Source: a virus
Lineage: Duplodnaviria > Caudoviricetes
Virus record (IMG/VR): IMGVR_UViG_3300010412_000013
Location: 1 to 60,506 of that record
DNA: 60,506 nucleotides
Reading direction: 5' to 3' (one strand)
Of this stretch, positions 7,206 to 42,420 are shown piece after piece (the first letter of the stretch is position 1; each line of letters opens with the position of its first letter). Under the pieces are notes generated by a model, which was not told the origin of the DNA, did no database searches, and saw only the letters and a list, made by a program, of their open reading frames with translations. Made by a program: the position numbers and the translations under genes.

Positions 7206-7643
7206 ATGTCAAATAGTTGGCACCAAAATGATATAGATAAAGACCTGCTTTCCACCATTGAAAACGTGATGGAGAGCAAGGATTCTGTATCAGCACAAAG
7301 ATACAAGGAAGACCAGTTGTCGGATTCCAAGTTCGCTCAGTTGCTCGTAGATGCTGTTAAGAAGAACATCAAGTCATTGAAAATGGATAAGACCAATATT
7401 TCAATTGACCTGAATCGCATTAAAGTATCTGAACTGAATGACTTTGTATCCGGTAAACTTGACTCAAAGAAAATAAATACATATGCCTATATGGTTGCTG
7501 ATAAAGTGACTAGGGGAGAGGGTATTAGTGACAGGCACAAGATGTTAAGGGATTCGTTGTCTACTGATATATTCACGAAACTTGTTGGAACACCAGTGAT
7601 GAATCTTGTAGTGCAGGAAGCAAAACGTAGAAATATAATTTAA
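7206..7643 (+). CDS. Hypothetical protein with WH-type leader
   Basis: AAGGAG RBS; MSNSWHQNDID...VMES. Confidence 0.55.
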   Translation: MSNSWHQNDIDKDLLSTIENVMESKDSVSAQRYKEDQLSDSKFAQLLVDAVKKNIKSLKMDKTNISIDLNRIKVSELNDFVSGKLDSKKINTYAYMVADKVTRGEGISDRHKMLRDSLSTDIFTKLVGTPVMNLVVQEAKRRNII

Positions 7644-7657
7644 CCAAAATACATACT

Positions 7658-8038
7658 ATGGAATTTGACGTGCTAACTGAACAAAACTTTACCATGTTTG
7701 CCATAAGGCACTATGACAATCCCCACTGCTATAGTGAGGATGAATTCAATGAAGACATATTCCGATTTGTTGCCTTGAAGAGGCTTCTAATCAAATATGT
7801 GAATACAGGTGAACTAAAAGAACGCCTGATATTGAATCACCTGACGATTCTTTATAATGTATTTGGCGAATCAACAACAAGGATGTTGCTCTACAAACTC
7901 CCCGAAAAGACATATCCATCATTAAAAACTTTTCTTGTGTTTATCAATAGGTTACATCAAAGCCCCACCAAACACGAAATTCCCTTACTGAATATTCCTA
8001 TTGATATAAATATAACCAAGAGATTACGAGAAATTTGA
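7658..8038 (+). CDS. Conserved T4-like phage hypothetical protein
   Basis: HYDNPxC...EFxED...GELKERLILNH..LYNVFG, recalled from cyanomyovirus core genes upstream of primase. Confidence 0.7.
   Translation: MEFDVLTEQNFTMFAIRHYDNPHCYSEDEFNEDIFRFVALKRLLIKYVNTGELKERLILNHLTILYNVFGESTTRMLLYKLPEKTYPSLKTFLVFINRLHQSPTKHEIPLLNIPIDINITKRLREI
8005..8012 (+). promoter_or_regulatory. T4-type late promoter TATAAATA
   Basis: Exact gp55 consensus, 36 nt before the ATG at 8048. Confidence 0.65.
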
Positions 8039-8047
8039 TGGTTATCC

Positions 8048-8623
8048 ATGTCAACAATTATTGATACATTCATTGCATTCAGGATACTGAAATTGCTTGC
8101 TTCCAAATGGGAGGAAACTGACGCATTCAAGTTGGGCATTATTGATGCGAAGGGAAATTTCCTGAAGAAGACAGGCGACCTCACCAATGCAGAAGAGCGC
8201 AAGGCATTTACAAAATTCCACGTTCTCGTCTTTAACCTGAAGAAGCTGATAGAAAAACTTCCATTTGGTTCTATGCGATTGGCATCCCTTGCAACCGCAT
8301 TGTATTTGTTGAAAGAGGAAGTGGGCGACACAGGAAAGGATGTTGAGTCACTCATATGGAATTTCATCAAGGATAATGGATACAAGCCAAACAATCTGCA
8401 TGAACACTTTTGCCTAGTTGAGACCATTGACAAGGGCGAGTATATCGTTATCAGGGATATCATTACCGATGATGGAGCATTGTTCAAGAAGGGCGAGAAG
8501 ATTATTGTGTCCAATCCAAAACCTATTGACAAGGTTCTTGGCAATGAAGTATTCACCGGAAAATCAAAAAAGAATAAACAGACTGTCATCTTTGTAGCAA
8601 AAGATGTGGAGAAAGTAAAATGA
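8048..8623 (+). CDS. Conserved T4-like phage hypothetical protein
   Basis: FRILKLL...W...AFKLGIIDxKG...NLKKLIEK...LYLLKE pattern typical of this T4-like cluster. Confidence 0.65.
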   Translation: MSTIIDTFIAFRILKLLASKWEETDAFKLGIIDAKGNFLKKTGDLTNAEERKAFTKFHVLVFNLKKLIEKLPFGSMRLASLATALYLLKEEVGDTGKDVESLIWNFIKDNGYKPNNLHEHFCLVETIDKGEYIVIRDIITDDGALFKKGEKIIVSNPKPIDKVLGNEVFTGKSKKNKQTVIFVAKDVEKVK

Positions 8624-8964
8624 CTATTGAACTGACATTCAAACAATTCATGAAATTGAATGAAGAACCCGTTTCCTCTGCCGCATCCAATGTCACTGGT
8701 GGTGGTGAAGTTGGTGGAACGGATACCATGGCTGCACCGACAGTTCCAATGCACATGTTTGCAAACTGTGCCGTGTTCGATGTCTGCAAAGACCGATACC
8801 ACAAATGTATACAGGGAAAGAAGCAATATGATAAATACGAGAACTATGTAGGAAACGATGAAATTGGTGAGGCTATTCGCCAATATGGTCGCAAGTATCC
8901 CAACAAAAGTATCATTGTCAGAGAAAAAGACACACACGCCATGGTGTTTCTAAGGAGAAAATAA
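8620..8964 (+). CDS. Conserved phage hypothetical protein with capsid-targeting-like leader
   Basis: LTFKQFMKLNEE leader; C-terminal IRQYGRKYP...AMVFLR. Confidence 0.55.
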   Translation: MTIELTFKQFMKLNEEPVSSAASNVTGGGEVGGTDTMAAPTVPMHMFANCAVFDVCKDRYHKCIQGKKQYDKYENYVGNDEIGEAIRQYGRKYPNKSIIVREKDTHAMVFLRRK

Positions 8965-9215
8965 TGTCAAAAGAATATACTGGACAGAATGCGGGTGCAG
9001 AATCCATGCGCGACCTGATTACCTATCTGAGAGAAGGTTGTGATACCTGTGGGGGTGAAAAGAAATGCGACAAAGACTGCACATGCGATAAATGCATGAA
9101 AGCCAAGGAACAGGTTGCTGAGGCATCCGACATAGGTGACAATGAATCCGTCGGAGACACCGAAGACGAGATTGCTGCCAAGAAAGCCGCTGCTGTCGAA
9201 AACGATGGTGTGTAA
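8964..9215 (+). CDS. Small acidic Cys-rich protein
   Basis: CDTCGGEKKCDKDCTCDKC cluster; coupled TAATG junctions on both sides. Confidence 0.5.
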   Translation: MSKEYTGQNAGAESMRDLITYLREGCDTCGGEKKCDKDCTCDKCMKAKEQVAEASDIGDNESVGDTEDEIAAKKAAAVENDGV

Positions 9216-10168
9216 TGAAGTCCTTCAAGACATACACACAAGAGAGACTTGACGAGAAAGTTTTCACTACCCGTTTCGTTGAATCTGAAATCAAGGATTT
9301 GCTTGTTCCTGCATTGGAAGGTGCAAAGAAAATGGGTAAACAACCTTTGATATATCGTGGATTCCATATCTCAAACACACACCCATTCAATTCACCTGTT
9401 GCCACAGTAACAACACTTGAAGCAAAAAAGGGAAAACTTATCGGCGCATACAAACGCTTACATGGTTTTGCTGATGGGTTTGATGAAGACGGAATTGTTG
9501 AAAAGACATTCAAGAAGCTGAAAATCAAAGACCCCGTATTTGCCACAAGAAACAAAAAGCTGGCAGAAATCTTTGGTTCATATCTTTACATTCTTATTCC
9601 TGTTGGCAACTATACGGTTTGGTATTCAAAAGAAATTGATGATGCCGTTGCAGCTATTGCCATTACCAAAAAATTTGGTGATAATCCAGACCCGAAAGAA
9701 CTTGCCTCAAAGTATGAGAGCAAGAGAAATACCACAACTGGTGTTGACAAGAAAAACGAATTGATATTCCAGTTCGATGATTCTCGTTATATGCTTTTCA
9801 ATCTACAGTCTTTGGCTTCATTCCAAATCAACAAGACGAGTGTCAAGAGCTATGCCGATGTTGTTGATATTTTAGAAAAAATTATTGCCGACCGAATCAA
9901 GCGCAAGATTGCATTTGACATGGGTCAACAAGCCTTTAATGCTTCTGGTAATGAAGAAGAAAAAATCACCCACATTCCAGATGCAGGGAAGACATCACAG
10001 GCTTTCATTTTAGACCAAGGATTACAAAAAATGATGCAGTTTGTGTTCAGAACAAAATACGGTTTTATCAGTTCGATTGGTGATGCAGATAATTTCAAGA
10101 CCCAAGCCGAAATTGACAAATACCTTAAATCAACAGAAGCTGACCTCAAGCTAATGGGGCTACTATGA
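9215..10168 (+). CDS. Putative R-S/T-E type ADP-ribosyltransferase-like virion protein
   Basis: MKSFKTY..LDE leader; LIYRG ... VFAT ... FG-x-YLYILIP ... NELIF. Confidence 0.35.
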   Translation: MKSFKTYTQERLDEKVFTTRFVESEIKDLLVPALEGAKKMGKQPLIYRGFHISNTHPFNSPVATVTTLEAKKGKLIGAYKRLHGFADGFDEDGIVEKTFKKLKIKDPVFATRNKKLAEIFGSYLYILIPVGNYTVWYSKEIDDAVAAIAITKKFGDNPDPKELASKYESKRNTTTGVDKKNELIFQFDDSRYMLFNLQSLASFQINKTSVKSYADVVDILEKIIADRIKRKIAFDMGQQAFNASGNEEEKITHIPDAGKTSQAFILDQGLQKMMQFVFRTKYGFISSIGDADNFKTQAEIDKYLKSTEADLKLMGLL

Positions 10169-10437
10169 AACAGTTCAAAGACATTAAACACGACATATCC
10201 GTTATAAAGGAAGAACTCTACAAGAAGATGTTCAATAATGTGTACAAGTCAAACATTGATGAATTTGCCAAGGCAAATGACCTAATCATCCTGAAAGACA
10301 AAAGCGCCGGAATCGAGTTATGGTATGGCGTAAAGAAAGACAATAAAAAGGAATTGATATTCACATATAGTCCAGATGATTCTGAACTGTATTCTGATTA
10401 TACCGTAATGGATTTACGAAGAGGTATAGTAAAATGA
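10165..10437 (+). CDS. Hypothetical protein with capsid-targeting-like leader
   Basis: MKQFKDI...IKEE; ATGA overlap with upstream gene. Confidence 0.5.
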   Translation: MKQFKDIKHDISVIKEELYKKMFNNVYKSNIDEFAKANDLIILKDKSAGIELWYGVKKDNKKELIFTYSPDDSELYSDYTVMDLRRGIVK

Positions 10438-10763
10438 ATAGTTGGCATGACCTGAACCTAGATGAAGAATTGATTGGCTTGGCTGATGAAATACTAATAT
10501 CAGAGGGGTTAAGTCAAATGTTAAATCTCGGTTGGAAACAAATGACACTATCTATGATAGTTGCCACAGACGACAAAAAATTTCTGAGCAATATCAAGGA
10601 TGCAATACATCAAGTCGGCATGGATTCTTTTGTTGATACTCTAAAGAAGGAACATAGAAAACTGTTCCTTGGGATTGTAAATAAACTTGAGAAAAATAAG
10701 GATTTTGTTAAGTCGGATAAGGAACTGAAAACACTGGCACATAAACTTGGGGCAAACCTGTAA
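10434..10763 (+). CDS. Hypothetical protein with WH-type leader
   Basis: MNSWHDLNLD...ILISE. Confidence 0.5.
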   Translation: MNSWHDLNLDEELIGLADEILISEGLSQMLNLGWKQMTLSMIVATDDKKFLSNIKDAIHQVGMDSFVDTLKKEHRKLFLGIVNKLEKNKDFVKSDKELKTLAHKLGANL

Positions 10764-11440
10764 TGAAAACTTTTACAGAATACACAAATACGACAACACA
10801 AAAACCAAACCTCATGGAGCGAATGAACCTGTTGACAGAAGAACAGGTTGCTGACTTGGCTGGCTTTTCAGTAAACGAGGCTGTTTCAGCAATCGTTGAA
10901 ATGTCATGGATTGTTGAACTATATGATAATGGCGTATTGGTTCCGCTATGTGAAGGCGAAGAAACCGGTCTGGTTTCTGTATTGAACTCAAAACTGTCAA
11001 AACTTGGTCTGAATATCGAGAAGTCTCATAAGGGAAGTCTTTTTGATATCGCCAAACGTGGTGGTGCTTCCATGCTGAAACTCTTGGTTGCTGCCATGAA
11101 AGGAGACAAGAAGACCATGATGGAAATAGGAAACACCCAAATCACATTCGGTCAGGTTCTTGACTTCCTGTTGAAACTGGATATGAGTTATTTCCACTTT
11201 GTCACACCATGGATTCACACCATCGATGCGGTTCTAGGATGGGAATTGTGGGCTAATCTTCAAAAGCGTGTTGGTACTGCATCCGAGAATACCCGTCAGG
11301 CTGTGGTGAAAACCTTTGCCGATGCCATCCAGTTCCTGAAAGACAAGGCAGAGCTTTTGACAGGTTCATTGAAAAATGCTGTACTGAATACCATCAATGC
11401 ACTGGATAAAACCCTGTCACCAGACTTGAAGCATATCTGA
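10763..11440 (+). CDS. Hypothetical helical protein with capsid-targeting-like leader
   Basis: MKTFTEY...LME/LTE; moderately hydrophobic amphipathic C-terminal half. Confidence 0.5.
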   Translation: MKTFTEYTNTTTQKPNLMERMNLLTEEQVADLAGFSVNEAVSAIVEMSWIVELYDNGVLVPLCEGEETGLVSVLNSKLSKLGLNIEKSHKGSLFDIAKRGGASMLKLLVAAMKGDKKTMMEIGNTQITFGQVLDFLLKLDMSYFHFVTPWIHTIDAVLGWELWANLQKRVGTASENTRQAVVKTFADAIQFLKDKAELLTGSLKNAVLNTINALDKTLSPDLKHI

Positions 11441-27388: not shown

Positions 27389-28372
27389 ATGCAAGAGTTC
27401 AACGACTTCAATCTATTACAAGAGGGGATTTCGCCCCTCTTGTTCCATATTACGAGCATAAAAAGCCTCTACGAAATGCTGAGTGGAGACAGGCTTTTCT
27501 TGCGCCCGTTGCTGAGGTCAATGGCAGACACTGTGGCTGACCCGTCAGGAATCTCGTCTACCGGAAAGGGTAAGGTTGAAAAGCTGTTCTTCCTGTCTAC
27601 TGCAAGAACCATGCATAGCCAGTACATCGACAGTTCATTCGACCGCTCCCGTGCCCATGTGGTTCTGGAACTGGATGGCAGGCTTCTGTCTACCCGTTAT
27701 TCCGGCAATCCCCTGGACTATTGGGGAAAAGACTTCCGCAACATGCTCAGTGGCAAGTATGAACAGGAAGACAGGATTTACCATACAGAACCCTATATCC
27801 CAAATGCCACAAAGTATATCAAGGCAATTCATATCCACATGCCCCAGACATACATTGACAAGCAGCTAAAAGAAAACGATAACATGAAGAAATTCATATC
27901 GGGTTCATTGCTTGTCGCCAAGAGAAAGGGCGTACCTGTACACTTCTACAATGACAAGGCAACCTTCTTTTCGAGAAGGAATCCGGTCAACTTTGACGTG
28001 TCGGCACTGAAAAGAACCGTTGAACCCTTCTCAAGTTCGATATACCGAGAAGACAGGAATAACACAGTTCTTGTGGCGAGGGGTCTTGCCCGATTCATGA
28101 CCGAGGTCGAGGATGTCAAGACCATGGACAAGGTTCTGGATGAACCCACAAAGAAATGGCTCAGGAACAACATGTTCAAGACAAGGGGGGATTTGGGTCA
28201 AACCGTACAAATCCTGTTCAACGACTTGTCGGATGTCTCAATTTCTACTGACGCCAGCCGAGATGCTGCAAAGCAGTTGGCAAAGGTCATGAGTAAGTAT
28301 CACATGAGAAGCCCTTCTGATTTTGGGGAACTTATCATTAACAAATACATTAAACTAACCAGAGGCATATAA
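27389..28372 (+). CDS. Putative ADP-ribosyltransferase-like virion protein
   Basis: MQEFNDF.LLQE leader; LFHIT...FLSTAR...VVLELDG...YEQEDRI (H, S-T, ExE motifs). Confidence 0.45.
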   Translation: MQEFNDFNLLQEGISPLLFHITSIKSLYEMLSGDRLFLRPLLRSMADTVADPSGISSTGKGKVEKLFFLSTARTMHSQYIDSSFDRSRAHVVLELDGRLLSTRYSGNPLDYWGKDFRNMLSGKYEQEDRIYHTEPYIPNATKYIKAIHIHMPQTYIDKQLKENDNMKKFISGSLLVAKRKGVPVHFYNDKATFFSRRNPVNFDVSALKRTVEPFSSSIYREDRNNTVLVARGLARFMTEVEDVKTMDKVLDEPTKKWLRNNMFKTRGDLGQTVQILFNDLSDVSISTDASRDAAKQLAKVMSKYHMRSPSDFGELIINKYIKLTRGI

Positions 28373-28373
28373 T

Positions 28374-28889
28374 ATGAAATATGAACCTAATGCATTGGTA
28401 CACGCACTGGCACCTAACTTCAAGATGTTTGAAATCGCCAAATCTTCAACCGCCACCCGTTATGGAATAGAGAATACCCCATCACCGGAAGTGGTAGACA
28501 ATGCCATAGAGCTGGCTGTAAACTGTCTTCAACCCATTCGCAAACAGTTTGGCGCGGTTCATGTGGAATCGTGGTATCGTTGCGAAGAACTGGAAAAAAT
28601 CATTGCCAAGTCAGGTTTTGAATCGTGGTGCAAGAAGAATGGTCGAAATGTGACCGACCCCAAGTCATGGGATGATTATTTTGCGGTCAAGTCTCACCCG
28701 AAAGGTGAGGCGGCTGACATTGAAGTGGGTGGATTGTCCAATGATGTTCTGTTCGAATGGTGCAAGAAGAACCTGAAATATGACCAATTGATTCGCGAAT
28801 TCCCGAAAGCTGGTGACCCTATGTCCGGCTGGGTTCATATTTCCTACCGCAAGGGCAACAACAGGCAAATGGCTTTCACGATTGGATAA
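28374..28889 (+). CDS. Peptidase M15A-type Zn peptidase (probable endolysin)
   Basis: SxTA.R.GI.N.P, LQPIR, SWYR, SH..GEAADI, WVHISY. Confidence 0.85.
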   Translation: MKYEPNALVHALAPNFKMFEIAKSSTATRYGIENTPSPEVVDNAIELAVNCLQPIRKQFGAVHVESWYRCEELEKIIAKSGFESWCKKNGRNVTDPKSWDDYFAVKSHPKGEAADIEVGGLSNDVLFEWCKKNLKYDQLIREFPKAGDPMSGWVHISYRKGNNRQMAFTIG

Positions 28890-28892
28890 ATA
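28885..28892 (+). promoter_or_regulatory. Late promoter GATAAATA
   Basis: Heads the coupled 28919-34395 run of leader-bearing genes. Confidence 0.55.
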
Positions 28893-28918: not shown

Positions 28919-29296
28919 ATGCAAACACTAACAGAAGGGTTCAGCGTACAAGACGTTCTGGACAGACTTGAAATCATGAAGGATGTTCTTCCTATCGTCA
29001 GGAAAGAAGTTCTTTTATCATTCGACAACACGGCTGATAAGGTCTCCGCCTCCAACATAAACACAGTCTTTGATGCACTGGAAAGGTTCACGGGTCAATT
29101 GGAAAAGGGTGTCAAAGGCAAGAAAGCCCTTGATGACAAAGACAAGAAAGCCATCAAGAACTATGTATTCATCTACAATGATGTCGGCAATAAGGTCAAT
29201 TCACTTCTGAATGCAAAGAAAGCCAAACGTAGCCACAACCTGAAAGTAGGGTTCGACATGATGAATCATGCTGTCAGGGTTATATCACAGGCTTGA
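28919..29296 (+). CDS. Hypothetical protein with short LTE leader
   Basis: MQTLTEG N-terminus. Confidence 0.5.
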   Translation: MQTLTEGFSVQDVLDRLEIMKDVLPIVRKEVLLSFDNTADKVSASNINTVFDALERFTGQLEKGVKGKKALDDKDKKAIKNYVFIYNDVGNKVNSLLNAKKAKRSHNLKVGFDMMNHAVRVISQA

Positions 29297-29299
29297 ATC

Positions 29300-30058
29300 A
29301 TGCAATCATTTATCCAACACACACAACTCGATGAAGCCCTTTCAAAGGTCACTTATGAGCAATATACCGCCATCATGGAAGGAAGGCTTGATGAAGGCAT
29401 TATTGATTTTGCCGTTGGTCTGAAGAAAGACATAGCCAAGGTGTTTGCTGAATTTAAGGATGAAATCCAGAAACTGATTCAGGAATTTGGTGATGAAGCC
29501 AAGGATATTGCCAAGGGATTTGCCACCAAGAAGATGTTCTACATTTTCAGGGCATTCAAGTTCAGTGTGAAAGCCATGACAGCTATCTTGGTGAAGGTTG
29601 CCGGTCTGTGGAGAGAAAGCCTTGGTGCCATATTCGAGGAAATGGCAAAGAGTGGTATCATGAAAAAAATACAAAGTGGTGCCATGAAGATTGACGAGGT
29701 TCTTGCCAAGTACCCCATCCTGAAAAAAATAAGTGGTCCACTGGTTGCCGGTCTACTGATTTATATCTGGCTGAACATGTCATTTATTGGCGACCCGCAA
29801 TATGACCTTGACTTCATGTCTGTGTTCGGTGCGCTTGGTGGAAATTTTTCACTGGCTGACCTGTTCACTGGAAAATCCGGATTGATGTTGATTACATTGT
29901 TTAGTACAGGCGGATTTATATCTGCACCATGGTTGGGCAATACTGCTGCAAATATTGTGTTGGCATTGATGTATACCGCACTTACTGCCTACAAGAAAAA
30001 TCATCCGGTGGCTGTAAGGCTACGCAACAAACTGAAAATGGTGAGGGTGAGAGCATGA
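29300..30058 (+). CDS. Leader-bearing protein with hydrophobic multi-helix C-terminus
   Basis: MQSFIQH..LDE leader; about three hydrophobic Gly-rich helices at the C-terminus. Confidence 0.55.
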   Translation: MQSFIQHTQLDEALSKVTYEQYTAIMEGRLDEGIIDFAVGLKKDIAKVFAEFKDEIQKLIQEFGDEAKDIAKGFATKKMFYIFRAFKFSVKAMTAILVKVAGLWRESLGAIFEEMAKSGIMKKIQSGAMKIDEVLAKYPILKKISGPLVAGLLIYIWLNMSFIGDPQYDLDFMSVFGALGGNFSLADLFTGKSGLMLITLFSTGGFISAPWLGNTAANIVLALMYTALTAYKKNHPVAVRLRNKLKMVRVRA

Positions 30059-31116
30059 AAAATTTTTCTGATATGTCAAAGGTCATTACCGAAAAGCGTT
30101 CACATTCTGATGTGAACCAGAGAACGTCTTTGTCGCATGAGTTTATGAAGGTCATCGATAACAACAATATCTATATTCACTTTTCAAACAAGAACATTAT
30201 TGGTGTTACAGCTAACCCTGATTACAATACACCTGCCGGTGTCTATGCATGGCAGTTGAATTCCTACAAGAAGGAAATAAAAGACAGGATTGCCGATAGT
30301 GTACATGATGCAAATAAAACGCTACAAAGAATTGATTCTGGTGAGTATGTTATCGATTCCCTTCCTGCAAAAATAGCATTCGAAAACACCAAACGAACTG
30401 CTGCCGGTCATGACATCTCGGTAAACATCGTGTTCCCTTACAGAGGCGATGCCAAATTTGTTCACATACTGGAAGCCAAGTCTGGTCTGAGGTGGTTTAG
30501 GTTAGGAAGTTCAGAGAGACTTTCTAGGCAGGAATTCTATAAAAACATGGAGATTCTTGAAACCTTCATACTGAATAATCCAACATATTCAAGCCTGTTC
30601 ACTGTGGGTGACATGTCAGACTTTGTGGATTTTCTTGAATCGTCCGAAAATGAACTAGACCACTACAATAACTTCTTTGCAAAAACTTATTACAATATGA
30701 GTATGGTCAGGAAAGAGGTTGACCGTGGCGCAGATGAAGCCAAGAGATGGTATTTGAGGCTGAATTATTTTGGTGCATTTGCTACATACAATCCATTTTC
30801 AAACAGAAGCATATTACTCTACTCACTGATTAATAGAATGAACAATTTTCTTCCTGAAGGCAGACAGGCTAACATGAAGAATGTGATTTTCAGGGAGATG
30901 GGTTATGATGCCATCCGTGATGATGGTTCAGGCGTTATATTCAATTGGGATGAACGCCATCAAGTTGTGTTCCTACACTCAGGCGCGTACAAGGTAAAAA
31001 CCATGCTTCCCAATACCGACATTTCAAGAAGCGAGAGGCATGAGTTATTTGGAAGGGGCAAGTCGAGACCAAAAGGCGAAAAGGGTTCTGGTGTAGGAGT
31101 AATTAATAAACCATGA
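30055..31116 (+). CDS. Paralog 1 of 4: ART-like putative virion protein
   Basis: Start reassigned to ATGA overlap (MKNFSD..ITEKR); YIHFS, TPxGVYxWQL, GYDAIRDDG, ExxQVVFL. Confidence 0.6.
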   Translation: MKNFSDMSKVITEKRSHSDVNQRTSLSHEFMKVIDNNNIYIHFSNKNIIGVTANPDYNTPAGVYAWQLNSYKKEIKDRIADSVHDANKTLQRIDSGEYVIDSLPAKIAFENTKRTAAGHDISVNIVFPYRGDAKFVHILEAKSGLRWFRLGSSERLSRQEFYKNMEILETFILNNPTYSSLFTVGDMSDFVDFLESSENELDHYNNFFAKTYYNMSMVRKEVDRGADEAKRWYLRLNYFGAFATYNPFSNRSILLYSLINRMNNFLPEGRQANMKNVIFREMGYDAIRDDGSGVIFNWDERHQVVFLHSGAYKVKTMLPNTDISRSERHELFGRGKSRPKGEKGSGVGVINKP

Positions 31117-32204
31117 AAAAATTTTCCGAAGTATCAAAAGAACTGAATGAGAAACGTGCCCATGCCGACATGAATCCCAAGGAAAGTGTTGTCAAGTATT
31201 TGCTGGACAATCTGAATAACAACAACGTTTACATTCACTTCTCGAATATCGAAAAGGTAGGAATCAATCCAAACACAAAATGGGCAACACCCATTGGTGT
31301 CTATGGATGGCAGTTGAACTACTACAAGAAAAAACTCATTCAGAATGTCGAAGACGTTAAAAATATTGCTGTCGATTTTTTCAAGGAATATAAACTGACA
31401 CCCAATTCAACACAGGCTGAGGTTGAAGCAAAGGGAATAGACTGGAAGAACTTTGTCTCTGCCGTGGGAATGTTGAATGGCACTTCTGGGGTTAAACTGG
31501 CTCGCGTATTTCCCTTCATGACTGAAGCAAAGTATATGCACGTTATCGAAGCCAAGTCAGGTCTCAAGTGGTTAAGGATTGGTGATTCAAGAACCAGTGA
31601 TAAGGAAGTTATGGATGGAGTGAAGATATTGGAAATGTTCATCCTTAAAGAAAGTGACAAGACAGTAGAAAACATGACTGGTCATAAGCTGGATGGCAGT
31701 TCAAACTATATGCGACTATTCAGGGAATCTGACTTTCCCGCACTCAAAAAGTGGTTCGGCTTATCTGAAGAAAAAATCAAAACAACTCTTGAAAGGCTAC
31801 AGAATAATCCGAATCCAGCCGAAATGAAGCCTTGGCTTGCCAGAGCCATAATCACTGATGTGATGGCACTACATACAACGAAAGATGGAAATGCCAAGTT
31901 CCTGTTTCAGTTGGTCAATGACATTTCAATGAATTTGGTAAAATCTCGCTTGCAGGCAGGCATCATGAAAACGACCATATACAGGGCTATGGGTTACGAT
32001 GCTATCCGCGATGATGGTACTGGTACATTCTATAGCATGAATGAGCCTGCCCAAGTGGTATTCCTGCACCCGAATGCCTACACGGTCAGGAAGACACTAA
32101 ATAATGATTCGGTTGAGAGAGAAAAGCGTAAAGCCCTTTTCGGTTTCGATTCCCAGACAAAAGCAGATTCATTTAAAAAAGCAAAATTCGAAAGCAGTTG
32201 GTAA
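31113..32204 (+). CDS. Paralog 2 of 4: ART-like putative virion protein
   Basis: MKKFSE..LNEKRAH; same conserved blocks. Confidence 0.6.
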   Translation: MKKFSEVSKELNEKRAHADMNPKESVVKYLLDNLNNNNVYIHFSNIEKVGINPNTKWATPIGVYGWQLNYYKKKLIQNVEDVKNIAVDFFKEYKLTPNSTQAEVEAKGIDWKNFVSAVGMLNGTSGVKLARVFPFMTEAKYMHVIEAKSGLKWLRIGDSRTSDKEVMDGVKILEMFILKESDKTVENMTGHKLDGSSNYMRLFRESDFPALKKWFGLSEEKIKTTLERLQNNPNPAEMKPWLARAIITDVMALHTTKDGNAKFLFQLVNDISMNLVKSRLQAGIMKTTIYRAMGYDAIRDDGTGTFYSMNEPAQVVFLHPNAYTVRKTLNNDSVEREKRKALFGFDSQTKADSFKKAKFESSW

Positions 32205-32207
32205 GTA

Positions 32208-33236
32208 ATGAAAAAGTTTTCAGAACTCACAAAGGTATTATCAGAGAAACGTGCCCATGCCGACATGAATGAAAAGGAATGGGTTGCCAAATATCTGATG
32301 GATAACATCAACAACAATAACCTGTACCTTCACTTCTCGAACATCAACAAGGTCGGCATCAAGCCAAGAAACGAATGGGATACGCCTCAAGGTGTCTATG
32401 GATGGCAGTTGAATGCATACAAGAAAACCATCAAGAAAATAGTCAGTGACGTGTCTGCTGATGCAAAGCAGACTATGGGTCAAAAAACCTACTTTGATAC
32501 CATGAATGACAAGGAGAAATACCTAACAACACAAAGAGCCAAGGGCGATGGAAGCGGAGTTTTTCTTACTGGTGTATTTCCATTCAGGGATGATTCCACC
32601 TACCTTCATGTGATTGAAGCCAAGTCTGGTCTCAGGTGGCTGAAACTTCATGGTGGAAACCACACACTTGATGACTTTCTGGACATCCTGAATGCCATCG
32701 AGATATATTGGTCACATAACGCAGACACTATGGGTTACATGAGAAGGGAAATGAATGCAGACAGAACTCCTGTTTATAAATTCACCCAAGAACAAATTTC
32801 CATGATGAAAAGGTACTACCAGCTTGACGACAGCGAAATACAGAAGGTCATTGAAAAGTTATATGACGAATACAAGACAAACAAACAAAGCCAGCTTTCT
32901 ACTATATGGTATTTCAGAAAAGAGTATATAATGTATTACATCTATAGCTATATGAATCGAGGTAATGCTTTTTCTGTTGGTGCTTATATGCTACTCAAAA
33001 TTGTTTGCAAAAAGCTATCAAGAAATGACGCACAGGTTGCCATTTCGATGAATGCCATCCTACGCGCCGCCGGTTTTGATGCGGTTCGTGATGATGGTGA
33101 AGGAATCCTGTTCAATGATGACGAGAGTAATCAGGTTGTGTTCCTACACGCAGGCGCGTACACGGTCAAGAAAACTTTGCTCAATACGTCACTGCCCCGT
33201 AGCACCAGAGCCAAAGTGTTTGGTAAGGGAGCATAA
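32208..33236 (+). CDS. Paralog 3 of 4: ART-like putative virion protein
   Basis: MKKFSE..LSEKRAH; same conserved blocks. Confidence 0.6.
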   Translation: MKKFSELTKVLSEKRAHADMNEKEWVAKYLMDNINNNNLYLHFSNINKVGIKPRNEWDTPQGVYGWQLNAYKKTIKKIVSDVSADAKQTMGQKTYFDTMNDKEKYLTTQRAKGDGSGVFLTGVFPFRDDSTYLHVIEAKSGLRWLKLHGGNHTLDDFLDILNAIEIYWSHNADTMGYMRREMNADRTPVYKFTQEQISMMKRYYQLDDSEIQKVIEKLYDEYKTNKQSQLSTIWYFRKEYIMYYIYSYMNRGNAFSVGAYMLLKIVCKKLSRNDAQVAISMNAILRAAGFDAVRDDGEGILFNDDESNQVVFLHAGAYTVKKTLLNTSLPRSTRAKVFGKGA

Positions 33237-33237
33237 T

Positions 33238-34395
33238 ATGCAATTCAAAGAATTCCCCAACCTTATGGAAAAACGCGCACACAGTGAACTCAATCCAAAA
33301 GATTGGGTGGCAAAGAATATCATGGATGTCATTGACAACAACAATATCTATATCCATTTTGGAAACATTGAAAAAGTTGGTATTGACCCAGTAACACAAT
33401 GGGAAACTCCAAATGGTGTCTATGCATGGCAGTTGAACGCATACAAGAAAAAGATAAAGGAAAGGGTTGCGGATTATAAGAATGCTGCCATAAAAACTCT
33501 TGGTGGATATGGTTTAAGTGAAAAATCCACTACTGCCGAAATTATGGCAGTATTGAAACAGGTTCCTGAAAACAATAGGGTTCTTGTTAATGCGCTGAAT
33601 ACTATCAGGGGGGATGGTACGGGTGTTAGTATAATGAACATCTTTCCATTCAGGGATGATTCCAAATATGTGCATATACTCGAAGCCAAGTCCGGCTTGA
33701 AGTGGCTGAAACTGTATAAGGGAAATGCTTCGATGGCTGACCTTAAACATGCCTGCGAAACACTTGAAATGTATCTGTTGAATTCAAACAAAGACATTTC
33801 CAAGGTAATTTCGTTTGACGTGTTTTCAGTTCTATCTGACGATAAAGAGGTTTTTGGCAAGAAGGTTTCATTTGACCAAAATGAAATGTCTTGGGTAAAA
33901 ATGATTTATGGTATTGATAATAAACATATCAAGGCAGTATTGAACACAATTGATAAAGGAAATGATTCAAAACTTGAGAGACTGTGGTATGTCAGGAAGC
34001 TGGTTGTCAATGTTGCCGAATATGTTGGTTATGACAGAAGCAATATCAATAAGGTGATTTACCATATTGTTGAAAGGGTTGCGCGTAGACTTGATACCAA
34101 TGACGCAAAGAGAGCCGCGATTAAAACGGTTCTGTTCAGAGCTATGGGATATGATGCCATCCGTGATGATGGTGGAGGCATTCTTTATAATTCTGGTGAA
34201 CCATCACAGGTCGTGTTCCTAACACCCAATTCATATATCGTCAAGAAGACGATGAACAATGATTCGTTGTCTAGGCTGAAACGTCAGGAGTGGTTCGGCT
34301 ATGATAGCCAGACCGGACAAGATTCTACCCAGAAGTTTGAGAACTCCCATGTGACGACAGCAAAGCTGGGTAAACCAGTGAAGGCATTCCAGTAA
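33238..34395 (+). CDS. Paralog 4 of 4: ART-like putative virion protein
   Basis: Start reassigned (GGGAG RBS; MQFKEF..LMEKRAH); same conserved blocks. Confidence 0.6.
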   Translation: MQFKEFPNLMEKRAHSELNPKDWVAKNIMDVIDNNNIYIHFGNIEKVGIDPVTQWETPNGVYAWQLNAYKKKIKERVADYKNAAIKTLGGYGLSEKSTTAEIMAVLKQVPENNRVLVNALNTIRGDGTGVSIMNIFPFRDDSKYVHILEAKSGLKWLKLYKGNASMADLKHACETLEMYLLNSNKDISKVISFDVFSVLSDDKEVFGKKVSFDQNEMSWVKMIYGIDNKHIKAVLNTIDKGNDSKLERLWYVRKLVVNVAEYVGYDRSNINKVIYHIVERVARRLDTNDAKRAAIKTVLFRAMGYDAIRDDGGGILYNSGEPSQVVFLTPNSYIVKKTMNNDSLSRLKRQEWFGYDSQTGQDSTQKFENSHVTTAKLGKPVKAFQ

Positions 34396-35673: not shown

Positions 35674-36258
35674 ATGAAGCAATTCAAAGAACTCAGGCAG
35701 GAAGCCGACCAACACAAGAACCTGACAGAATCCTTCAAGAACCTGTTCGACAAGGATTCCGAAGAACGCAAGAAATATGCTGGCGAAGTCTGGAACATCC
35801 TGCAAACATCCTACGCCAAGATAGGTGGCATCAAGGGAAACGGTTTCAGGTCGATTGATGACATGATAGCCAGCATACCCTTCTGGAAGCTATCCATCCG
35901 CAATGGCATCGTGACAGCCGTGGCAATGTACAAAGACACCAATGGAAGGAAGCGTGTCGCCATAGGAACCAATGGAACCCCGCAGGGCAAGTCTGATATA
36001 GCCAATATCCTAGTGGCTGATATGCGTCAATACAGAGCCTATGCCGAAGTATCCGATGCATCCCTGAAGTTCATCAAGAAGCAGTTTTCTGAACAGGAAA
36101 TGGCAAAGTATTTCGTGCCAGTCGAGGTTGTCCAGAAGAAGGTTTTCCCTTATGAAGAAATCCGACCAGTTGACAAATTCAGCTACATGAGAAACATTGG
36201 TGGCGAATGGAAAGAGAAGGTCATGATTGGCAATGTCAATGCCCCAAGAATCCAGTAA
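35674..36258 (+). CDS. Conserved T4-like protein with capsid-targeting-like leader (possible GNAT-like fold)
   Basis: MKQFKEL...LTE; VWxILQxSYxxIGG, WKL, MYKD..GRK, EVS. Confidence 0.55.
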   Translation: MKQFKELRQEADQHKNLTESFKNLFDKDSEERKKYAGEVWNILQTSYAKIGGIKGNGFRSIDDMIASIPFWKLSIRNGIVTAVAMYKDTNGRKRVAIGTNGTPQGKSDIANILVADMRQYRAYAEVSDASLKFIKKQFSEQEMAKYFVPVEVVQKKVFPYEEIRPVDKFSYMRNIGGEWKEKVMIGNVNAPRIQ

Positions 36259-39227: not shown

Positions 39228-39623
39228 ATGGCAAAGGTTATCATTGCTGGTGGTCGTGACTTCAATAGCATGAAAGTTCTTGAAGCCACAATGAAATATG
39301 TGATGGCACCTGATGGTGAAAATATTCAGGTTGATGAAGTCATTACTGGTTGTGCCGTTGGTGCCGATACGCTTGGCATGAAATGGGCAGAAGCCAATGG
39401 AATACCTGTGACCAAGATGCCAGCCTCTTGGAAGGAACATGGCAAGAAAGCTGGTATCATGAGAAACCTGCAAATGGCTCATGAGGGCGATGTTCTTGTC
39501 GCTTTCTGGGATACAAAATCGAAGGGAACTGGTCACATGATAAGCATTGCCCAGAAGAAGGGATTGAAGGTTATTGTGAGACAATACAACCTGCCGGAAA
39601 AGGCAAGGTGCATGGGTGTTTGA
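39228..39623 (+). CDS. SLOG-superfamily (YspA/DUF2493-like) protein
   Basis: IIAGGRDF, GCAxGAD, AGxxRNxQM, AFWDxxSKGT. Confidence 0.85.
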   Translation: MAKVIIAGGRDFNSMKVLEATMKYVMAPDGENIQVDEVITGCAVGADTLGMKWAEANGIPVTKMPASWKEHGKKAGIMRNLQMAHEGDVLVAFWDTKSKGTGHMISIAQKKGLKVIVRQYNLPEKARCMGV

Positions 39624-40741
39624 TGTACAAGCCATATTTCATGAAGGATGTGCATGACGCATCCGCACAAAACAAATTCACTGTCATATCGACATTCGCT
39701 GGTGGGGGAGGTTCCTCTACCGGCTATCGTCTTGCTGGCGGAAAACTGCTGTGTGTGAATGAATTTGTGCCAGAAGCCATTGCCACCTATCATGCCAACT
39801 ATCCAGACACACCAATACTGTCAGGCGATTTTAGGGAACTGAAAGCCGAAGACTTCCTGAATGCTGCTGGCATATCAGTAGGTGAGCTTGACATCCTTGA
39901 CGGTTCGCCTCCCTGCATGGCATTCACAGAGAACAATGGTGGAGGCTACAAGCAATGGGGAAAAGACAAGAACTACAGTGATGTGACACTGACCAATGCC
40001 GAAGACCTTTTCTTTGACTTCCTTGCCATGGCAGACCAACTGAAACCGAAGGTTATCATTGCCGAGAATGTCAGGGGCATAGGCAAGAGCCAACACAAGC
40101 ATTACTTCAACCGTATCCTGAACACCATGTCAGACATCGGCTATGTGCCGACAGCCAAGATGCTGGATGCATCTTACTTTGGTGTTCCACAATCAAGGCT
40201 GAGGTATTTCTTTGTCGGTATTCGAAAAGACATCGCTGCCGAGAAAGGCATCAACCGAATGAACATTGCCAAGAGGGTCTACCCGAAAGAGAATGACACC
40301 CAGACTGTTGTTGGTGATGCGATTCGAGACCTGATGACAGACCCGCAGAATATCCTTGATGGTGAATACCTTGAATCCAAGATGAAAACCATGTCGAAGT
40401 ATGAGTGGGTCAAGCAATTCAAGGGTGACAAGGTTGACAGACCAATAAAGATGTCTGAGATACACCCGAAAGGAAGTTTCTGGAACACAACAAGACTGTT
40501 ATGGAACTATCCTTGCTGGACAATCACCCAGACAGGATTGACCGAAGGATTGCAGACACATCTTCATCCAGAATATGACCGTGGCATTACCTTGATGGAA
40601 TCCAAGCGAATTATGAGCCTGCCTGATGACTATATCCTGACAGGCAAGCTGAACCAGCAATATGAAAGGGTTGGCAGGATGGTTGCCCCACTGCAAATGA
40701 AAGCCTTGGCTGAAAACATTTATGAGAAGGTGTTGAAATGA
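39623..40741 (+). CDS. C5-cytosine DNA methyltransferase family (possibly carboxymethyltransferase)
   Basis: FAGGGG motif I, GSPPC motif IV, ENV motif VI, QSRxR motif VIII; motif X reads GRMV instead of GNxV. Confidence 0.9.
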   Translation: MYKPYFMKDVHDASAQNKFTVISTFAGGGGSSTGYRLAGGKLLCVNEFVPEAIATYHANYPDTPILSGDFRELKAEDFLNAAGISVGELDILDGSPPCMAFTENNGGGYKQWGKDKNYSDVTLTNAEDLFFDFLAMADQLKPKVIIAENVRGIGKSQHKHYFNRILNTMSDIGYVPTAKMLDASYFGVPQSRLRYFFVGIRKDIAAEKGINRMNIAKRVYPKENDTQTVVGDAIRDLMTDPQNILDGEYLESKMKTMSKYEWVKQFKGDKVDRPIKMSEIHPKGSFWNTTRLLWNYPCWTITQTGLTEGLQTHLHPEYDRGITLMESKRIMSLPDDYILTGKLNQQYERVGRMVAPLQMKALAENIYEKVLK

Positions 40742-41451
40742 GATTTACTTTTGCCAATGAACCCGAAGGATTCGATGTACATATCAACAATTCGATTCGA
40801 GGCTATAGCGAACTCTGGACAGATGTTGTAAAGATGTCTGACTATTTCGTCTCTGAGGAATCGTTAATAATTGACATCGGATGTTCGACAGGCAAGATGC
40901 TGGTTGCCATGGCTGAAAGGGCACATGACAAAAATCTTGACCCAGTACATTGTTTGGGATTTGAGGTTGAAGAAGACTTCAGGCAACCGCTTGCAGATAA
41001 TTTCCTGAATTCGACAATCAATACTTCTGATGCGGTAACACTTGGGGTGAAGATGGAAGATATTGCCAATTTTGATTTTAGCAAATTGCCCTATGGCATA
41101 TCCTATGCCACTTCCATATTTACCTTGCAGTTCATCCAGAAGGAAAAACGCCAGAAGATTATCAGAGAAATCTACAATAACATGAAAGTCGGTGGTGCCT
41201 TTGTCTTTGCTGAAAAGGTCTATTCACCTAACGCCCAATTGCAGGATGTGATGACCTTCATGCATTATGACCATAAGTCAAAGAACTTTTCTGCTGAAGA
41301 AATACTAAATAAGGAAAGAACCCTGAGAAATATGCTGAGACCCAACACCCGTGAAGAATTGGAAGACATGATTGGAAAGGCAGGTTTCACATCGGTTCAA
41401 CCATTCTGGCAGAACTATAATTTTGTCGGGTATATCTGCATAAAGACCTGA
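40738..41451 (+). CDS. cmoA: CmoA-like carboxy-SAM synthase / class I SAM-dependent enzyme
   Basis: FDxHIxxSIRGY, DIGCSTG, FTLQF, AEK, FWQNYNF parallel CmoA blocks. Confidence 0.75.
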   Translation: MRFTFANEPEGFDVHINNSIRGYSELWTDVVKMSDYFVSEESLIIDIGCSTGKMLVAMAERAHDKNLDPVHCLGFEVEEDFRQPLADNFLNSTINTSDAVTLGVKMEDIANFDFSKLPYGISYATSIFTLQFIQKEKRQKIIREIYNNMKVGGAFVFAEKVYSPNAQLQDVMTFMHYDHKSKNFSAEEILNKERTLRNMLRPNTREELEDMIGKAGFTSVQPFWQNYNFVGYICIKT

Positions 41452-41466
41452 CAAGGGAAAAAACCA

Positions 41467-42420
41467 ATGAAAACAGTATTGTCAATAGATGGCGGTGGAA
41501 TAAAAGGAATAATCGCTGCATTGGCATTGGAAGAAATTGAGAGGCAAATAGGAAAGCCCATTTCAGACTGCTTCGACCTTATATGTGGAGTAAGCACAGG
41601 CGGAATCATTGCCTCAATACTGACCATACCTGATGACGACGGAAGACCAAAATATAAAGCCAGTGATGTCGTCAAGTTTTACAGGGAAGAGGGAAGGAGA
41701 ATATTCAGGAAGCGTTCGAAAATCCCGTTCTACTATCTGTTCAAATCAAAATATCGCCATTCGAGACTGAAGGATGCAATCCGTTCAAGGATAGGTGACC
41801 TTCCATTCAATCACCTGACAAACAGGGTCATGATACCCTGCTATGACCTGATAGAGAGAAGACCCTATTTCTTCAAGAACTGGTATCCTGATATTATTAA
41901 TGTGGCTACATACCAAGTAGCGACAGCCACTTCAAGTGCCCCAACCTACTTTGACCCACAGATATGCAACATGGGAAATGGTTCCACTAGGAAACTTCTT
42001 GTTGATGGTTCTGTTGCTGTCAATAACCCAACCGCCTGCGCGTATGCGGAAGCCAAGCGTCTCTGGGGCAATGAAGAGATTTTTGTGGTGTCAATAGGAA
42101 CCGGTGACGTGACAGACCCTATCGAGAATCAGAAGAGGTGGGGATTCCTTAATTGGTATCCAGAAGTCATTGAGGTTCTTGTTGATGCCCCAACCAATAC
42201 AGTAGACTATCAATTGAGGAACATGATACCAAGACACTATGTCAGGTTCCAGAACAAGATAAACTACTCTTCCGAAAAACTGGATGATGTGTCATTCAGG
42301 AACATAAGAAGGCTATTGACTGAAGGGAAGTCCTTTGTGGAATCGGATTACCACAAATACACTTTCACCATCACTGCACTAAAAAAACGATTGAAGGAAA
42401 AGACTGATGAAAAGGTTTAG
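41467..42420 (+). CDS. Patatin-like phospholipase
   Basis: LSIDGGG, GVSTG, SAPTYF, DGS..NNP, SIGTG. Confidence 0.9.
   Translation: MKTVLSIDGGGIKGIIAALALEEIERQIGKPISDCFDLICGVSTGGIIASILTIPDDDGRPKYKASDVVKFYREEGRRIFRKRSKIPFYYLFKSKYRHSRLKDAIRSRIGDLPFNHLTNRVMIPCYDLIERRPYFFKNWYPDIINVATYQVATATSSAPTYFDPQICNMGNGSTRKLLVDGSVAVNNPTACAYAEAKRLWGNEEIFVVSIGTGDVTDPIENQKRWGFLNWYPEVIEVLVDAPTNTVDYQLRNMIPRHYVRFQNKINYSSEKLDDVSFRNIRRLLTEGKSFVESDYHKYTFTITALKKRLKEKTDEKV

Follow-up and report, generated by a model that had tools for sequence, protein, structure and literature searches.

A tandem array of diversified paralogs with T4-like leaders and an ART-PolyVal-like core in an uncultured T4-like phage: candidate injected effectors

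Four adjacent and mutually related genes lie at 30055-34395 of the virus record IMGVR_UViG_3300010412_000013, and they pose the question of what a phage might do with four diverged copies of a single protein. The whole 60.5-kb record (positions 1 to 60,506), referred to here as the window, is estimated to represent 27% of the genome, and its recognisable genes (a gp32-type single-stranded-DNA-binding protein, baseplate hub, tube and tube-cap proteins, DNA end protector, and primase) identify the phage as T4-like; PhoH and an M15 endolysin-like peptidase are also present. We propose that the four genes encode effectors with a core resembling that of ADP-ribosyltransferases (ARTs), which would be packaged in the phage head, trimmed by a protease and injected, with the choice of target set by variable inserts; we consider this proposal about evenly balanced between right and wrong.

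A tandem array of four paralogs

The array consists of four plus-strand open reading frames (ORFs) arranged head to tail, encoding products of 353, 363, 342 and 385 aa, with spacings of -4, +3 and +1 bases between successive genes. For genes 1 and 4 longer ORFs (starts at 29929 and 33052) run into the preceding genes, and the internal ATGs at 30055 and 33238, which yield homologous N-termini, were taken as the starts. The genes, their putative leaders and their candidate functional residues are as follows.

30055..31116, + strand: paralog 1, 353 aa; leader MKNFSDMSKVITE (30055-30093), then KRSH; candidate residues His42, Tyr64, Asp285 (of GYD), Asp289, Glu300, Gln303
31113..32204, + strand: paralog 2, 363 aa; leader MKKFSEVSKELNE (31113-31151), then KRAH; candidate residues His42, Tyr64, Asp296, Asp300, Glu311, Gln314
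32208..33236, + strand: paralog 3, the modelled copy, 342 aa; leader MKKFSELTKVLSE, then KRAH; candidate residues His42, Tyr64, Asp291, Asp295, Glu306, Gln309
32208..32246, + strand: the 13-codon capsid-targeting-like leader of paralog 3, ending L-S-E
32655..33062, + strand: second insert of paralog 3 (residues 150-285 approximately), modelled as helical and 18% identical among the paralogs
33238..34395, + strand: paralog 4, 385 aa; leader MQFKEFPNLME (33238-33270), then KRAH; candidate residues His40, Tyr62, Asp306, Asp310, Glu321, Gln324

In a MAFFT alignment (A1), paralogs 2-4 are 33, 35 and 35% identical to paralog 1, and 66 of 396 columns are invariant across the four. The initial annotation had described packed paralogs of 342-385 aa sharing ordered blocks separated by almost unalignable segments, and this description stands: every block it quoted is found in A1, with MKxFxE..(L/I)xE-KR(A/S)H, Y(I/L)HF(S/G)N and TPxGVYxWQLNxYKK in the N-terminal part of all four proteins, and FP(F/Y)..H(I/V)(L/I)EAKSGLxW and G(Y/F)DA(I/V)RDDGxG..ExxQVVFL in the later part. 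Mean pairwise identity is 0.55 for the leader plus N-terminal core, 0.55 for the middle core and 0.53 for the C-terminal core, against 0.20 and 0.18 for inserts 1 and 2. The duplication is also visible at the DNA level as three repeat families (D2, D4, D6), each with four copies spaced 1066-1091 nt apart that are 63-77% identical to the reference copy, and this four-copy structure is far beyond chance. A profile of the four paralogs matches exactly these four places in the record. Contigs of two further DNA runs from the same study also carry the array (one, X2, covers 29108-33806 with 6 differences), although as runs of one study they are not independent of the window and have no bearing on expression.

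To place the four genes among their relatives, a FastTree tree was built from 136 family rows and 251 columns, the rows being the 152 stored proteins of the wider family less 16 that are shorter than 200 aa or longer than 520 aa. The four paralogs constitute one clade (SH-like support 95) whose branching, P1(P2(P3,P4)), follows the gene order, and from these sequences we therefore take them to be lineage-specific local tandem duplicates of one family member.

A large family of uncultured phages

The four proteins have no meaningful match in Pfam, PHROGs, NCBIfam or PADLOC. A word-seeded search recovers only 8 proteins, 4 of which are the window's own, but exhaustive profile searching yields 1530 representatives at E<=1e-3 and 229 at E<=1e-10. 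Among the 150 matches listed the lengths range from 168 to 1777 aa, and those of 797-1777 aa include proteins with up to 6 matched stretches. The family consensus reads L.E.R..P..NPK....L..Y...Y(I/V)(S/H)F(T/S)...K.GINP.S...TP.G(I/V)Y.YPL in its N-terminal part and PFA...Y..L ... WN..LR.LGYD...D..G.G.IH..EP.Q(A/V)VFL later on; in paralog-3 numbering, Glu13, Lys48, Gly50, Pro53, Thr59, Pro60, Gly62, Tyr64, Gly289, Asp295, Glu306 and Gln309 are nearly invariant.

A pattern scan with a narrower alignment (A3) found 77 loci with a family ORF in viral contigs of up to 415 kb. Fifteen of these loci have at least two copies within about 10 kb and one has nine; some loci duplicate one another, and the copy-number counts are thus not independent. 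The initial annotation had called for comparison of copy number across related phages, and the number ranges from 1 to 9 between phages. In the largest array the cores are 40-50% identical and the insert 11-17%, the same pattern of core and insert as in the window.

L024 9980-20792: tandem array of nine family genes encoding 224-479 aa, with (S/G)AR in place of ExR at the end of the leader; several are C-terminally extended

No cultured carrier was seen in three tblastn queries against the phage collection; DNA and protein queries (the array, paralog 4) gave no match there, and two mainstream relatives used as queries matched only unannotated uncultured megaphages at about 25% identity. The corresponding scan with A1 gave no relative in either viral or metagenome contigs, and the A3 scan of 185,579 species genomes returned 3 loci, all in metagenome-assembled genomes. 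From these sequences the family appears to be large, confined to phages, carried by T4-like and jumbo uncultured phages, and often tandem.

Few additional domains accompany it. Scanning the 136 relatives with Pfam matched no family in more than 4 members; NUDIX domains are fused in 2 relatives, although a NUDIX-box regular expression matched none. Pentapeptide-repeat models match 4 and 2 of the 136, and some members (P0037, P0067, P0068, P0074 and others) have 4-13 copies of a C-terminal GxWxxG repeat.

Probable kinship of the core with ART-PolyVal

ART-PolyVal (PF18760) is a His-Tyr-Asp ART domain of the Tox-ART-HYD2 clade, found in polyvalent proteins of phages and conjugative elements (Iyer et al. 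2017, PMC5512222), and several lines of evidence relate the array proteins to it. An AlphaFold2 model of paralog 3, built with the 136-row alignment, has a mean predicted local distance difference test score (pLDDT) of 87.9 and a predicted template-modelling (TM) score of 0.87, and contains seven strands (39-44, 63-67, 132-138, 144-146, 292-294, 309-312 and 318-325). Helices, within 68-111 and 154-287, make up most of the two variable inserts (about 68-125 and about 150-287), and the predicted strand order is compatible with ART-PolyVal. The second insert lies where ART-PolyVal proteins carry a helical insert before LGYD.

Foldseek comparison of the model with BFVD places three unnamed proteins at ranks 1-3 (E 1.5e-7 to 1.3e-5), and 7 of the first 28 rows are named ART-PolyVal (ranks 4, 11, 12, 15, 20, 27 and 28). 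The highest-placed of these, at rank 4, is matched at E 3.3e-3 with a probability of 1.00 and a TM of 0.54 by target, and probabilities range from 0.63 to 1.00 for ranks 4, 12, 15 and 20. ART-PolyVal and RES clusters are also among the nearest Atlas neighbours, at the level of leads only. PF18760 itself occurs in 3 of 5 large phage records that also carry the family, but finds nothing at E<=0.01 in six frames of the window, and the four paralogs do not match the model at E<=1.

For profile comparison we used an alignment of 28 ART-PolyVal rows (A6), comprising a set from phage records and 25 homology-search proteins, all 25 with PF18760. The C-terminal halves of the two families align by hhalign with 91.6% probability (P 8.1e-7), LGYD falling on LGYD and the last strands pairing; over the whole length P is 4.3e-4 in an alignment of 122 columns that starts at the third strand, includes the helical insert and reaches the end. 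Cross-controls of N-terminal against C-terminal halves give P 0.07-0.29, and an earlier run with only six sequences gave the same picture.

In the published description of ART-PolyVal (PMC5512222, section 9) the triad is made up of a strand-1 His, a strand-2 Tyr and a strand-5 Asp. Because Y(I/L)HF, GVY and G(Y/F)D occur in this order in all four array proteins, each has a complete candidate His-Tyr-Asp triad. His42 (His40 in paralog 4) falls within the modelled strand 39-44 in all four; G-V-Y opens strand 63-67, its Tyr being present in 134 of 136 relatives, and is equated with the ART-PolyVal GFYFT by motif order only; and G(Y/F)D aligns with an LGYD that is invariant in the 28 ART-PolyVal sequences. 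The initial annotation had assigned the core to the His-Tyr-Glu ARTs with the Glu of ExxQVVF as third residue, and here a correction is needed, since the nearest kin are His-Tyr-Asp ARTs in the description of PMC5512222 and the third residue is the GYD Asp.

In one locus (L006) true PF18760 genes lie beside family genes; together with the NUDIX fusions these neighbours are a weak hint of NAD or ADP-ribose chemistry. A compensatory exchange of His between positions 42 and 302 was considered and rejected (contingency table 83/22/16/13; median p 1 in an independent-pairs test on the tree, with 6-10 usable pairs).

A number of results count against an ART assignment. The best Pfam match of the four proteins has E 0.019 and is to unrelated families, no ART model being matched, and the 25 families listed, of the 66 that match the 136 relatives at E<=0.1, do not include PF18760. 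The N-terminal halves, which contain the putative His and Tyr, do not align significantly with those of ART-PolyVal (P 0.21), so that of the ART-like core originally claimed it is the C-terminal part, together with the Foldseek similarity, that finds support. The AlphaFold and Foldseek check proposed in the initial annotation has a similarly divided outcome for paralog 3: predicted ART-PolyVal proteins are matched, but a search of the PDB gives no match at E<=1e-3 and no ART among the 50 rows listed. First among the PDB rows comes an ejection protein from inside the capsid of cyanophage A4 (9k3a_B, E 2.4e-2, TM 0.33), and further rows are helical proteins that evidently match the inserts of the model. 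Sequence searches of the PDB with the family profile, ART-PolyVal or the relative P0017 also give nothing relevant; since ART-PolyVal itself thus has no solved relative detectable by sequence, this silence of the PDB is to be expected.

It might therefore be supposed that the resemblance to ARTs is spurious and that the core has a different fold and activity. The structural matches are all between predicted models, with TM values by query of 0.30-0.36, the profile similarity is confined to the C-terminal part, and no solved ART structure is matched. Foldseek, Atlas and hhalign with clean cross-controls nonetheless converge on ART-PolyVal, and both the order of the motifs and the position of the insert are the same as in that family; we consider a spurious resemblance very improbable. 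An ART-type core is the best fold assignment for the array proteins, and its kinship with ART-PolyVal is supported but indirect. On our reading the family and ART-PolyVal are sister branches, the former having a remodelled region from strand 1 to strand 2 and an additional conserved D...E-P-x-Q element.

Whether such a core is a transferase is a separate matter, and two further observations weigh on the negative side. The His noted as conserved at the outset is kept in all four array proteins, but elsewhere in the family Ser or Thr usually takes its place: of the 136 relatives, 79 have Ser at this strand-1 position, 36 His and 19 Thr. The GYD Asp, for its part, is retained by only 74 of the 136. 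The proteins could accordingly be packaged and injected yet not transfer ADP-ribose, acting instead by binding or hydrolysing NAD+ or a NAD-derived signal, or, in the manner of T4 Ip1-3, as stoichiometric inhibitors of defence enzymes of the host, with the inserts forming the binding surface. Loss of the strand-1 His in 98 and of the GYD Asp in 62 of the 136 relatives, while Lys48, Tyr64, Asp295, Glu306 and Gln309 are nearly invariant, is in keeping with this, as is the presence among the Atlas leads of clusters of RES, a NAD+ phosphorylase; moreover, T4 Ip1-3 are described as leader-bearing, injected and non-enzymatic inhibitors, each directed at one GmrSD enzyme (PMC12373910). The four window proteins, on the other hand, retain His, Tyr and Asp, and near-invariance of polar residues across 136 diverged sequences favours a conserved pocket over a mere scaffold. 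We regard a non-transferase role as unlikely overall, if with an appreciable chance.

A leader like those of T4 internal proteins

Each array protein begins with 11-13 residues that have an aromatic residue near position 4 and end in (L/I)xE, followed by KR(A/S)H. The first 10 residues of T4 internal protein IPIII are reported to be enough for head targeting, positions 4 and 7 mattering for targeting and 8 and 10 for processing, and the prohead protease gp21 to cleave after L/I-x-E (PMC9026906). As read from the T4 genome (AF158101), the leaders of IPIII and IPII are both MKTYQEFIAE and that of IPI is MKTFKEFTSTTTPVSTITE. The array leaders do look like these capsid-targeting sequences, and the leader with an (L/I)xE site reported in the initial annotation thus holds, with the qualification that the likeness is to IPI-III rather than to Alt, with which it had been compared. 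Mainstream relatives of the array are nearer still to T4, as in MKTFKQFIKE-ARSNP.

Across the family, [LI]xE.R occurs in 103 of 152 proteins, with its Glu mostly at residues 8-14 and 35 residues ahead of the K.G motif. A strict T4-like 10-mer pattern is present in 23 of 152 family proteins, 7 of 25 ART-PolyVal proteins and 2 of 3 T4 internal proteins, compared with 1 of 1160 internal Met positions. Within the window, leader-type starts are found in 8 of 97 called ORFs (9215, 10165, 10763, 27389, 30055, 31113, 33238 and 35674) versus 2 of 241 internal Mets; two ORFs dropped by the overlap filter, at 29300 and 32208, have them as well.

The decisive point in our analysis is that the part preceding the Glu follows the phage and not the protein family. 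In locus L007 a homolog of a 327-aa ORF of the window and two family genes all begin MLSYKE(Y/F)L.E, and in L006, a 21-kb locus, many ORFs that include a true ART-PolyVal gene (7800-8804) begin MR(K/H)(V/I)V(I/L)A and are interleaved with three family genes, which there lack the Glu. Because unrelated ORFs of one phage have near-identical starts in these loci, we interpret the leader as a portable targeting signal. Peptidase_S77 was not found in the L006 record, rated 100% complete, which suggests a different pair of leader and protease in that phage. Some ART-PolyVal homologs have no leader at all and start at the YHG strand.

The association with a protease is less clear, and here too there are findings that tell against packaging. 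Of 10 large records with family members only 5 contain Peptidase_S77, and one record without it, rated 100% complete, still has a Glu-type leader; overall, leaders of the Glu type are seen in all 4 of the readable records that have the protease and in 2 of 5 that lack it, a co-occurrence that is suggestive but not conclusive. Neither a prohead protease nor a head gene is found in the 27% of the genome that the window represents. Paralogs 1, 2 and 4 contain 3-4 further internal [LI]xE sites, and residues 4-15 of paralog 3 are modelled as a helix (pLDDT 75-79), such that the leader could also belong to the fold. The candidate late promoter described below is, moreover, only a 7-mer.

These findings bear on the possibility that the proteins are not packaged at all, their N-terminus being part of the fold or a feature of translation or regulation, and that they act in the cytoplasm in the manner of T4 ModA and ModB. 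The conserved (K/A)R..P..NPK that follows the Glu is modelled with high confidence, consistent with such a role together with the helical residues 4-15; the missing head and protease genes, neighbours (PhoH, the M15 endolysin-like peptidase and a hydrolase) that are not head genes, and the lack of a full late-promoter consensus upstream of the array point in the same direction. Such a role does not readily explain a pre-Glu part that varies by phage in L007 and L006, the leaderless ART-PolyVal homologs that begin at the YHG strand, or the match to experimentally defined T4 targeting sequences, and we think it improbable.

A packaged protein need not have a host target, however, and the array products could be purely structural internal head proteins that condense DNA or form part of a scaffold or inner body. 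The predicted mature forms are basic (pI 9.06-9.40, 38-42 kDa), the paralogs are multi-copy, and the best PDB row is the capsid-internal ejection protein noted above. That match is weak, though; hypervariable inserts and a copy number of 1 to 9 between phages fit conflict genes better, and a structural role leaves the putative conserved polar pocket unexplained. We judge it more improbable still than action in the cytoplasm.

Proposed mechanism

Because the array proteins combine an ART-like core with a T4-style leader, we consider that they are probably injected to disarm the host. Each would be built from a leader ending in (L/I)-x-E, a split ART-PolyVal-like core and two helical inserts. 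Synthesis would occur late in infection, the leader would load the proteins into the prohead core, and a T4-type prohead protease would trim them after Glu13 (Glu11 in paralog 4) to basic 38-42 kDa products beginning KR(A/S)H, to be stored with the DNA in the head and injected along with it. In the host the ART-like core would bind NAD+ and ADP-ribosylate a macromolecule selected by the variable inserts, and each paralog may be directed against a different target or target variant, much as T4 Ip1-3 each block a different GmrSD enzyme. We infer the whole series, from late synthesis through packaging, cleavage and injection to NAD+-dependent modification.

Neighbouring genes and other leader-bearing ORFs

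The array is preceded without any gap greater than 3 nt by two genes, and all genes from 28919 to 34395 are packed in this way. These and the other features of interest in the window are listed here.

27389..28372, + strand: 327-aa gene; leader-like start MQEFNDFNLLQE; motifs LLFHITS, FFLSTAR and EQEDR
28886..28892, + strand: ATAAATA, the core of the T4 late-promoter consensus, in the short gap ahead of the 28919 gene
28919..30058, + strand: two unannotated genes, 125 and 252 aa, directly upstream of the array
29300-30058, + strand: the 252-aa gene; leader-like start MQSFIQHTQLDE and a hydrophobic C-terminal half
10763-11440: 225-aa ORF; first 19 residues MKTFTEYTNTTTQKPNLME; no library match for the remainder
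9215-10168, 10165-10437, 29300-30058 and 35674-36258: further unannotated ORFs with an MKxF/MQxF start and (L/I)xE within 20 residues
2320-2646, 2648-3376, 7206-7643 and 10434-10763: four ORFs with a second N-terminal motif, otherwise 17-24% identical

The T4 late-promoter consensus is TATAAATA. Because the genes are packed from there to 34395, ATAAATA at 28886..28892 is a candidate late promoter for the whole block, and the same heptamer also precedes the tube-cap and end-protector genes. It is mildly enriched in the window, at 17 sites versus 10.2 expected (4 of 100 shuffles reach 17); the full TATAAATA occurs 3 times in the window, never near the array, and scans of the window for sigma-70 promoters and terminators are at or below shuffle expectation. 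ARAGORN finds no tRNA gene in the window, an absence that would stand out in a T4-like phage this large only if the remainder of the genome also lacks them, and no Rfam family reaches its gathering score.

The 327-aa gene, which has no library match, is a conserved neighbour, since homologs lie directly upstream of family genes in L007 and L066/L067. It was tried as a second ART and rejected, with hhalign giving P 0.17 against ART-PolyVal and aligning only the leader with the family; Atlas leads for it are DUF2971 and DUF3626, again leads only. By eye, the leader of the 10763 ORF is identical to that of T4 IPI at 10 of 19 positions, a similarity not picked up by BLASTP of IPI against this ORF (E 1.4). 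From their starts, the ORFs at 9215, 10165, 29300 and 35674 are candidate head-targeted proteins.

The second N-terminal motif is M(G/NS)WH(D/E/Q)..(I/L)D..L(I/L) followed by (L/I/V)xE within about 15 residues, and it may represent a second class of targeting leader. A similar long leader, ..QD...DLI....ILE-ARRNP, is seen in some family members, for example P0037, P0048 and P0118. One of the four ORFs with a WH leader (2648-3376, 242 aa) has no Pfam match at E<=0.001 and contains IIDGHHRW, which may correspond to the DGxHR motif of ParB/sulfiredoxin type. Elsewhere, the 460-aa ORF at 34-1416 gives weak matches of RNA-ligase and cytidylyltransferase type (E 7e-4 to 1e-4, some of them below cut-off) and the ORF at 1420-2310 begins with an FGSFNP motif, read as nucleotidyltransferase-like; from these resemblances both may be concerned with nucleotide or NAD-related metabolism. 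A C-5 cytosine DNA methylase (E 1e-51), an ORF resembling S-adenosylmethionine-dependent methyltransferases and a patatin-like phospholipase (E 9e-21) lie in a row at 39608-42420.

Novelty and significance

Delivery of ARTs in the head and their multiplication in jumbo phages are already published concepts (PMC5512222; PMC9503650, section 3.3.1; PMC7824862), and of the undescribed system announced in the initial annotation it is therefore the family, not the concept, that is new. What seem to be new are the family itself, unannotated in four libraries, its remodelled N-terminal half with frequent loss of the His, its organisation as diversifying tandem arrays, and the reach of T4-type leaders into uncultured large phages. 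We found no description of the family in the literature searched, although supplementary tables of the Aravind-group surveys might list members.

A broader view can be offered tentatively, and we lean somewhat against it: the array would be the first example to be recognised of a very large superfamily that descends from ART-PolyVal, is confined to phages and is loaded into the heads of T4-like and jumbo phages by lineage-specific leaders and arranged in arrays of up to nine copies that swap helical specificity inserts, amounting to an injected, NAD-using counter-defence repertoire. Were this so, its logic would be comparable to that of polymorphic toxins, the leader would allow the injected proteome of uncultured large phages to be read from sequence, and the window would add at least six candidates, among them the ParB-like protein with the second leader type and the conserved 327-aa neighbour.

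Injected phage proteins act ahead of phage gene expression and thus form a first layer of counter-defence, and we know of very few outside T4, P1, N4 and T7. With 1530 representatives and no annotation, the family may be among the commonest unrecognised classes of injected protein in large phages of the environment. The arrays would, provided that the ART-like core is active, constitute a natural library in which one catalytic scaffold is combined with many target-recognition inserts, useful for finding new host defence targets and new substrates of ADP-ribosylation. The occurrence of T4-type leaders on unrelated genes of distant uncultured phages provides a simple sequence rule for predicting injected proteomes.

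Comparison with known systems

ART-PolyVal is the closest relative of the array family. Judged by motif order and modelled strands, both appear to have a strand with His, G-x-Y, a third strand, a helical insert, LG(Y/F)D and the last strands in the same order, with similar predicted structures and the C-terminal alignment given above; both occur in large phages and are predicted to be delivered by virions, the same kind of leader is seen in 7 of the 25 ART-PolyVal proteins, and in L006 the two families have neighbouring genes. The array family differs in having no match to the Pfam model PF18760, in a strand 1-2 stretch that forms a K-x-G-(I/V)-N-P...T-P loop where ART-PolyVal has a YHG(S/T)..F helix, in the added near-invariant Asp295, Glu306, Pro307 and Gln309, and in the loss of the His from most members. 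Unlike polyvalent proteins, those of the window are single-domain proteins of 342-385 aa.

The T4 proteins IPI-III resemble the array in their short leader, aromatic at position 4 and closing with (L/I)-x-E, a leader that is the sole feature common to otherwise unrelated proteins of one phage; in being non-core, hypervariable genes of a T4-like genome; and in having several copies with presumably distinct targets. Their location is also similar, ipII and ipIII adjoining the lysozyme gene e and the array lying two genes after the endolysin-like peptidase. The leader is 11-13 residues long in the array and 10 in IPII and IPIII. However, the T4 proteins are described as mutually unrelated, non-enzymatic GmrSD inhibitors of 95-193 aa (PMC12373910), whereas the array proteins are mutually homologous, 342-385 aa long and predicted to have an enzyme-like fold.

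T4 Alt is a head-carried ART that is trimmed by the prohead protease, injected, and modifies host proteins (PMC5512222, PMC9026906), and by analogy it offers the same delivery and chemistry as we propose for the array. Alt, which has roughly double the length, is a member of the Arg-Ser-Glu Alt/VIP2 clade, marked by Arg in strand 1, Ser-x-Ser in strand 2 and Glu-x-Glu in strand 5; the array strands carry His and Tyr instead of Arg and Ser, and there is no similarity of sequence or motif to Alt/VIP2 and no Pfam match. Finally, jumbo phages are reported to contain multiple ARTs, with at least 10 in Bacillus phage G (PMC9503650, section 3.3.1), and the array shares with these an expansion of ART-superfamily genes within one large phage genome; whereas the jumbo-phage ARTs are of named families, the array is a tight tandem of one unnamed family whose inserts have diversified.

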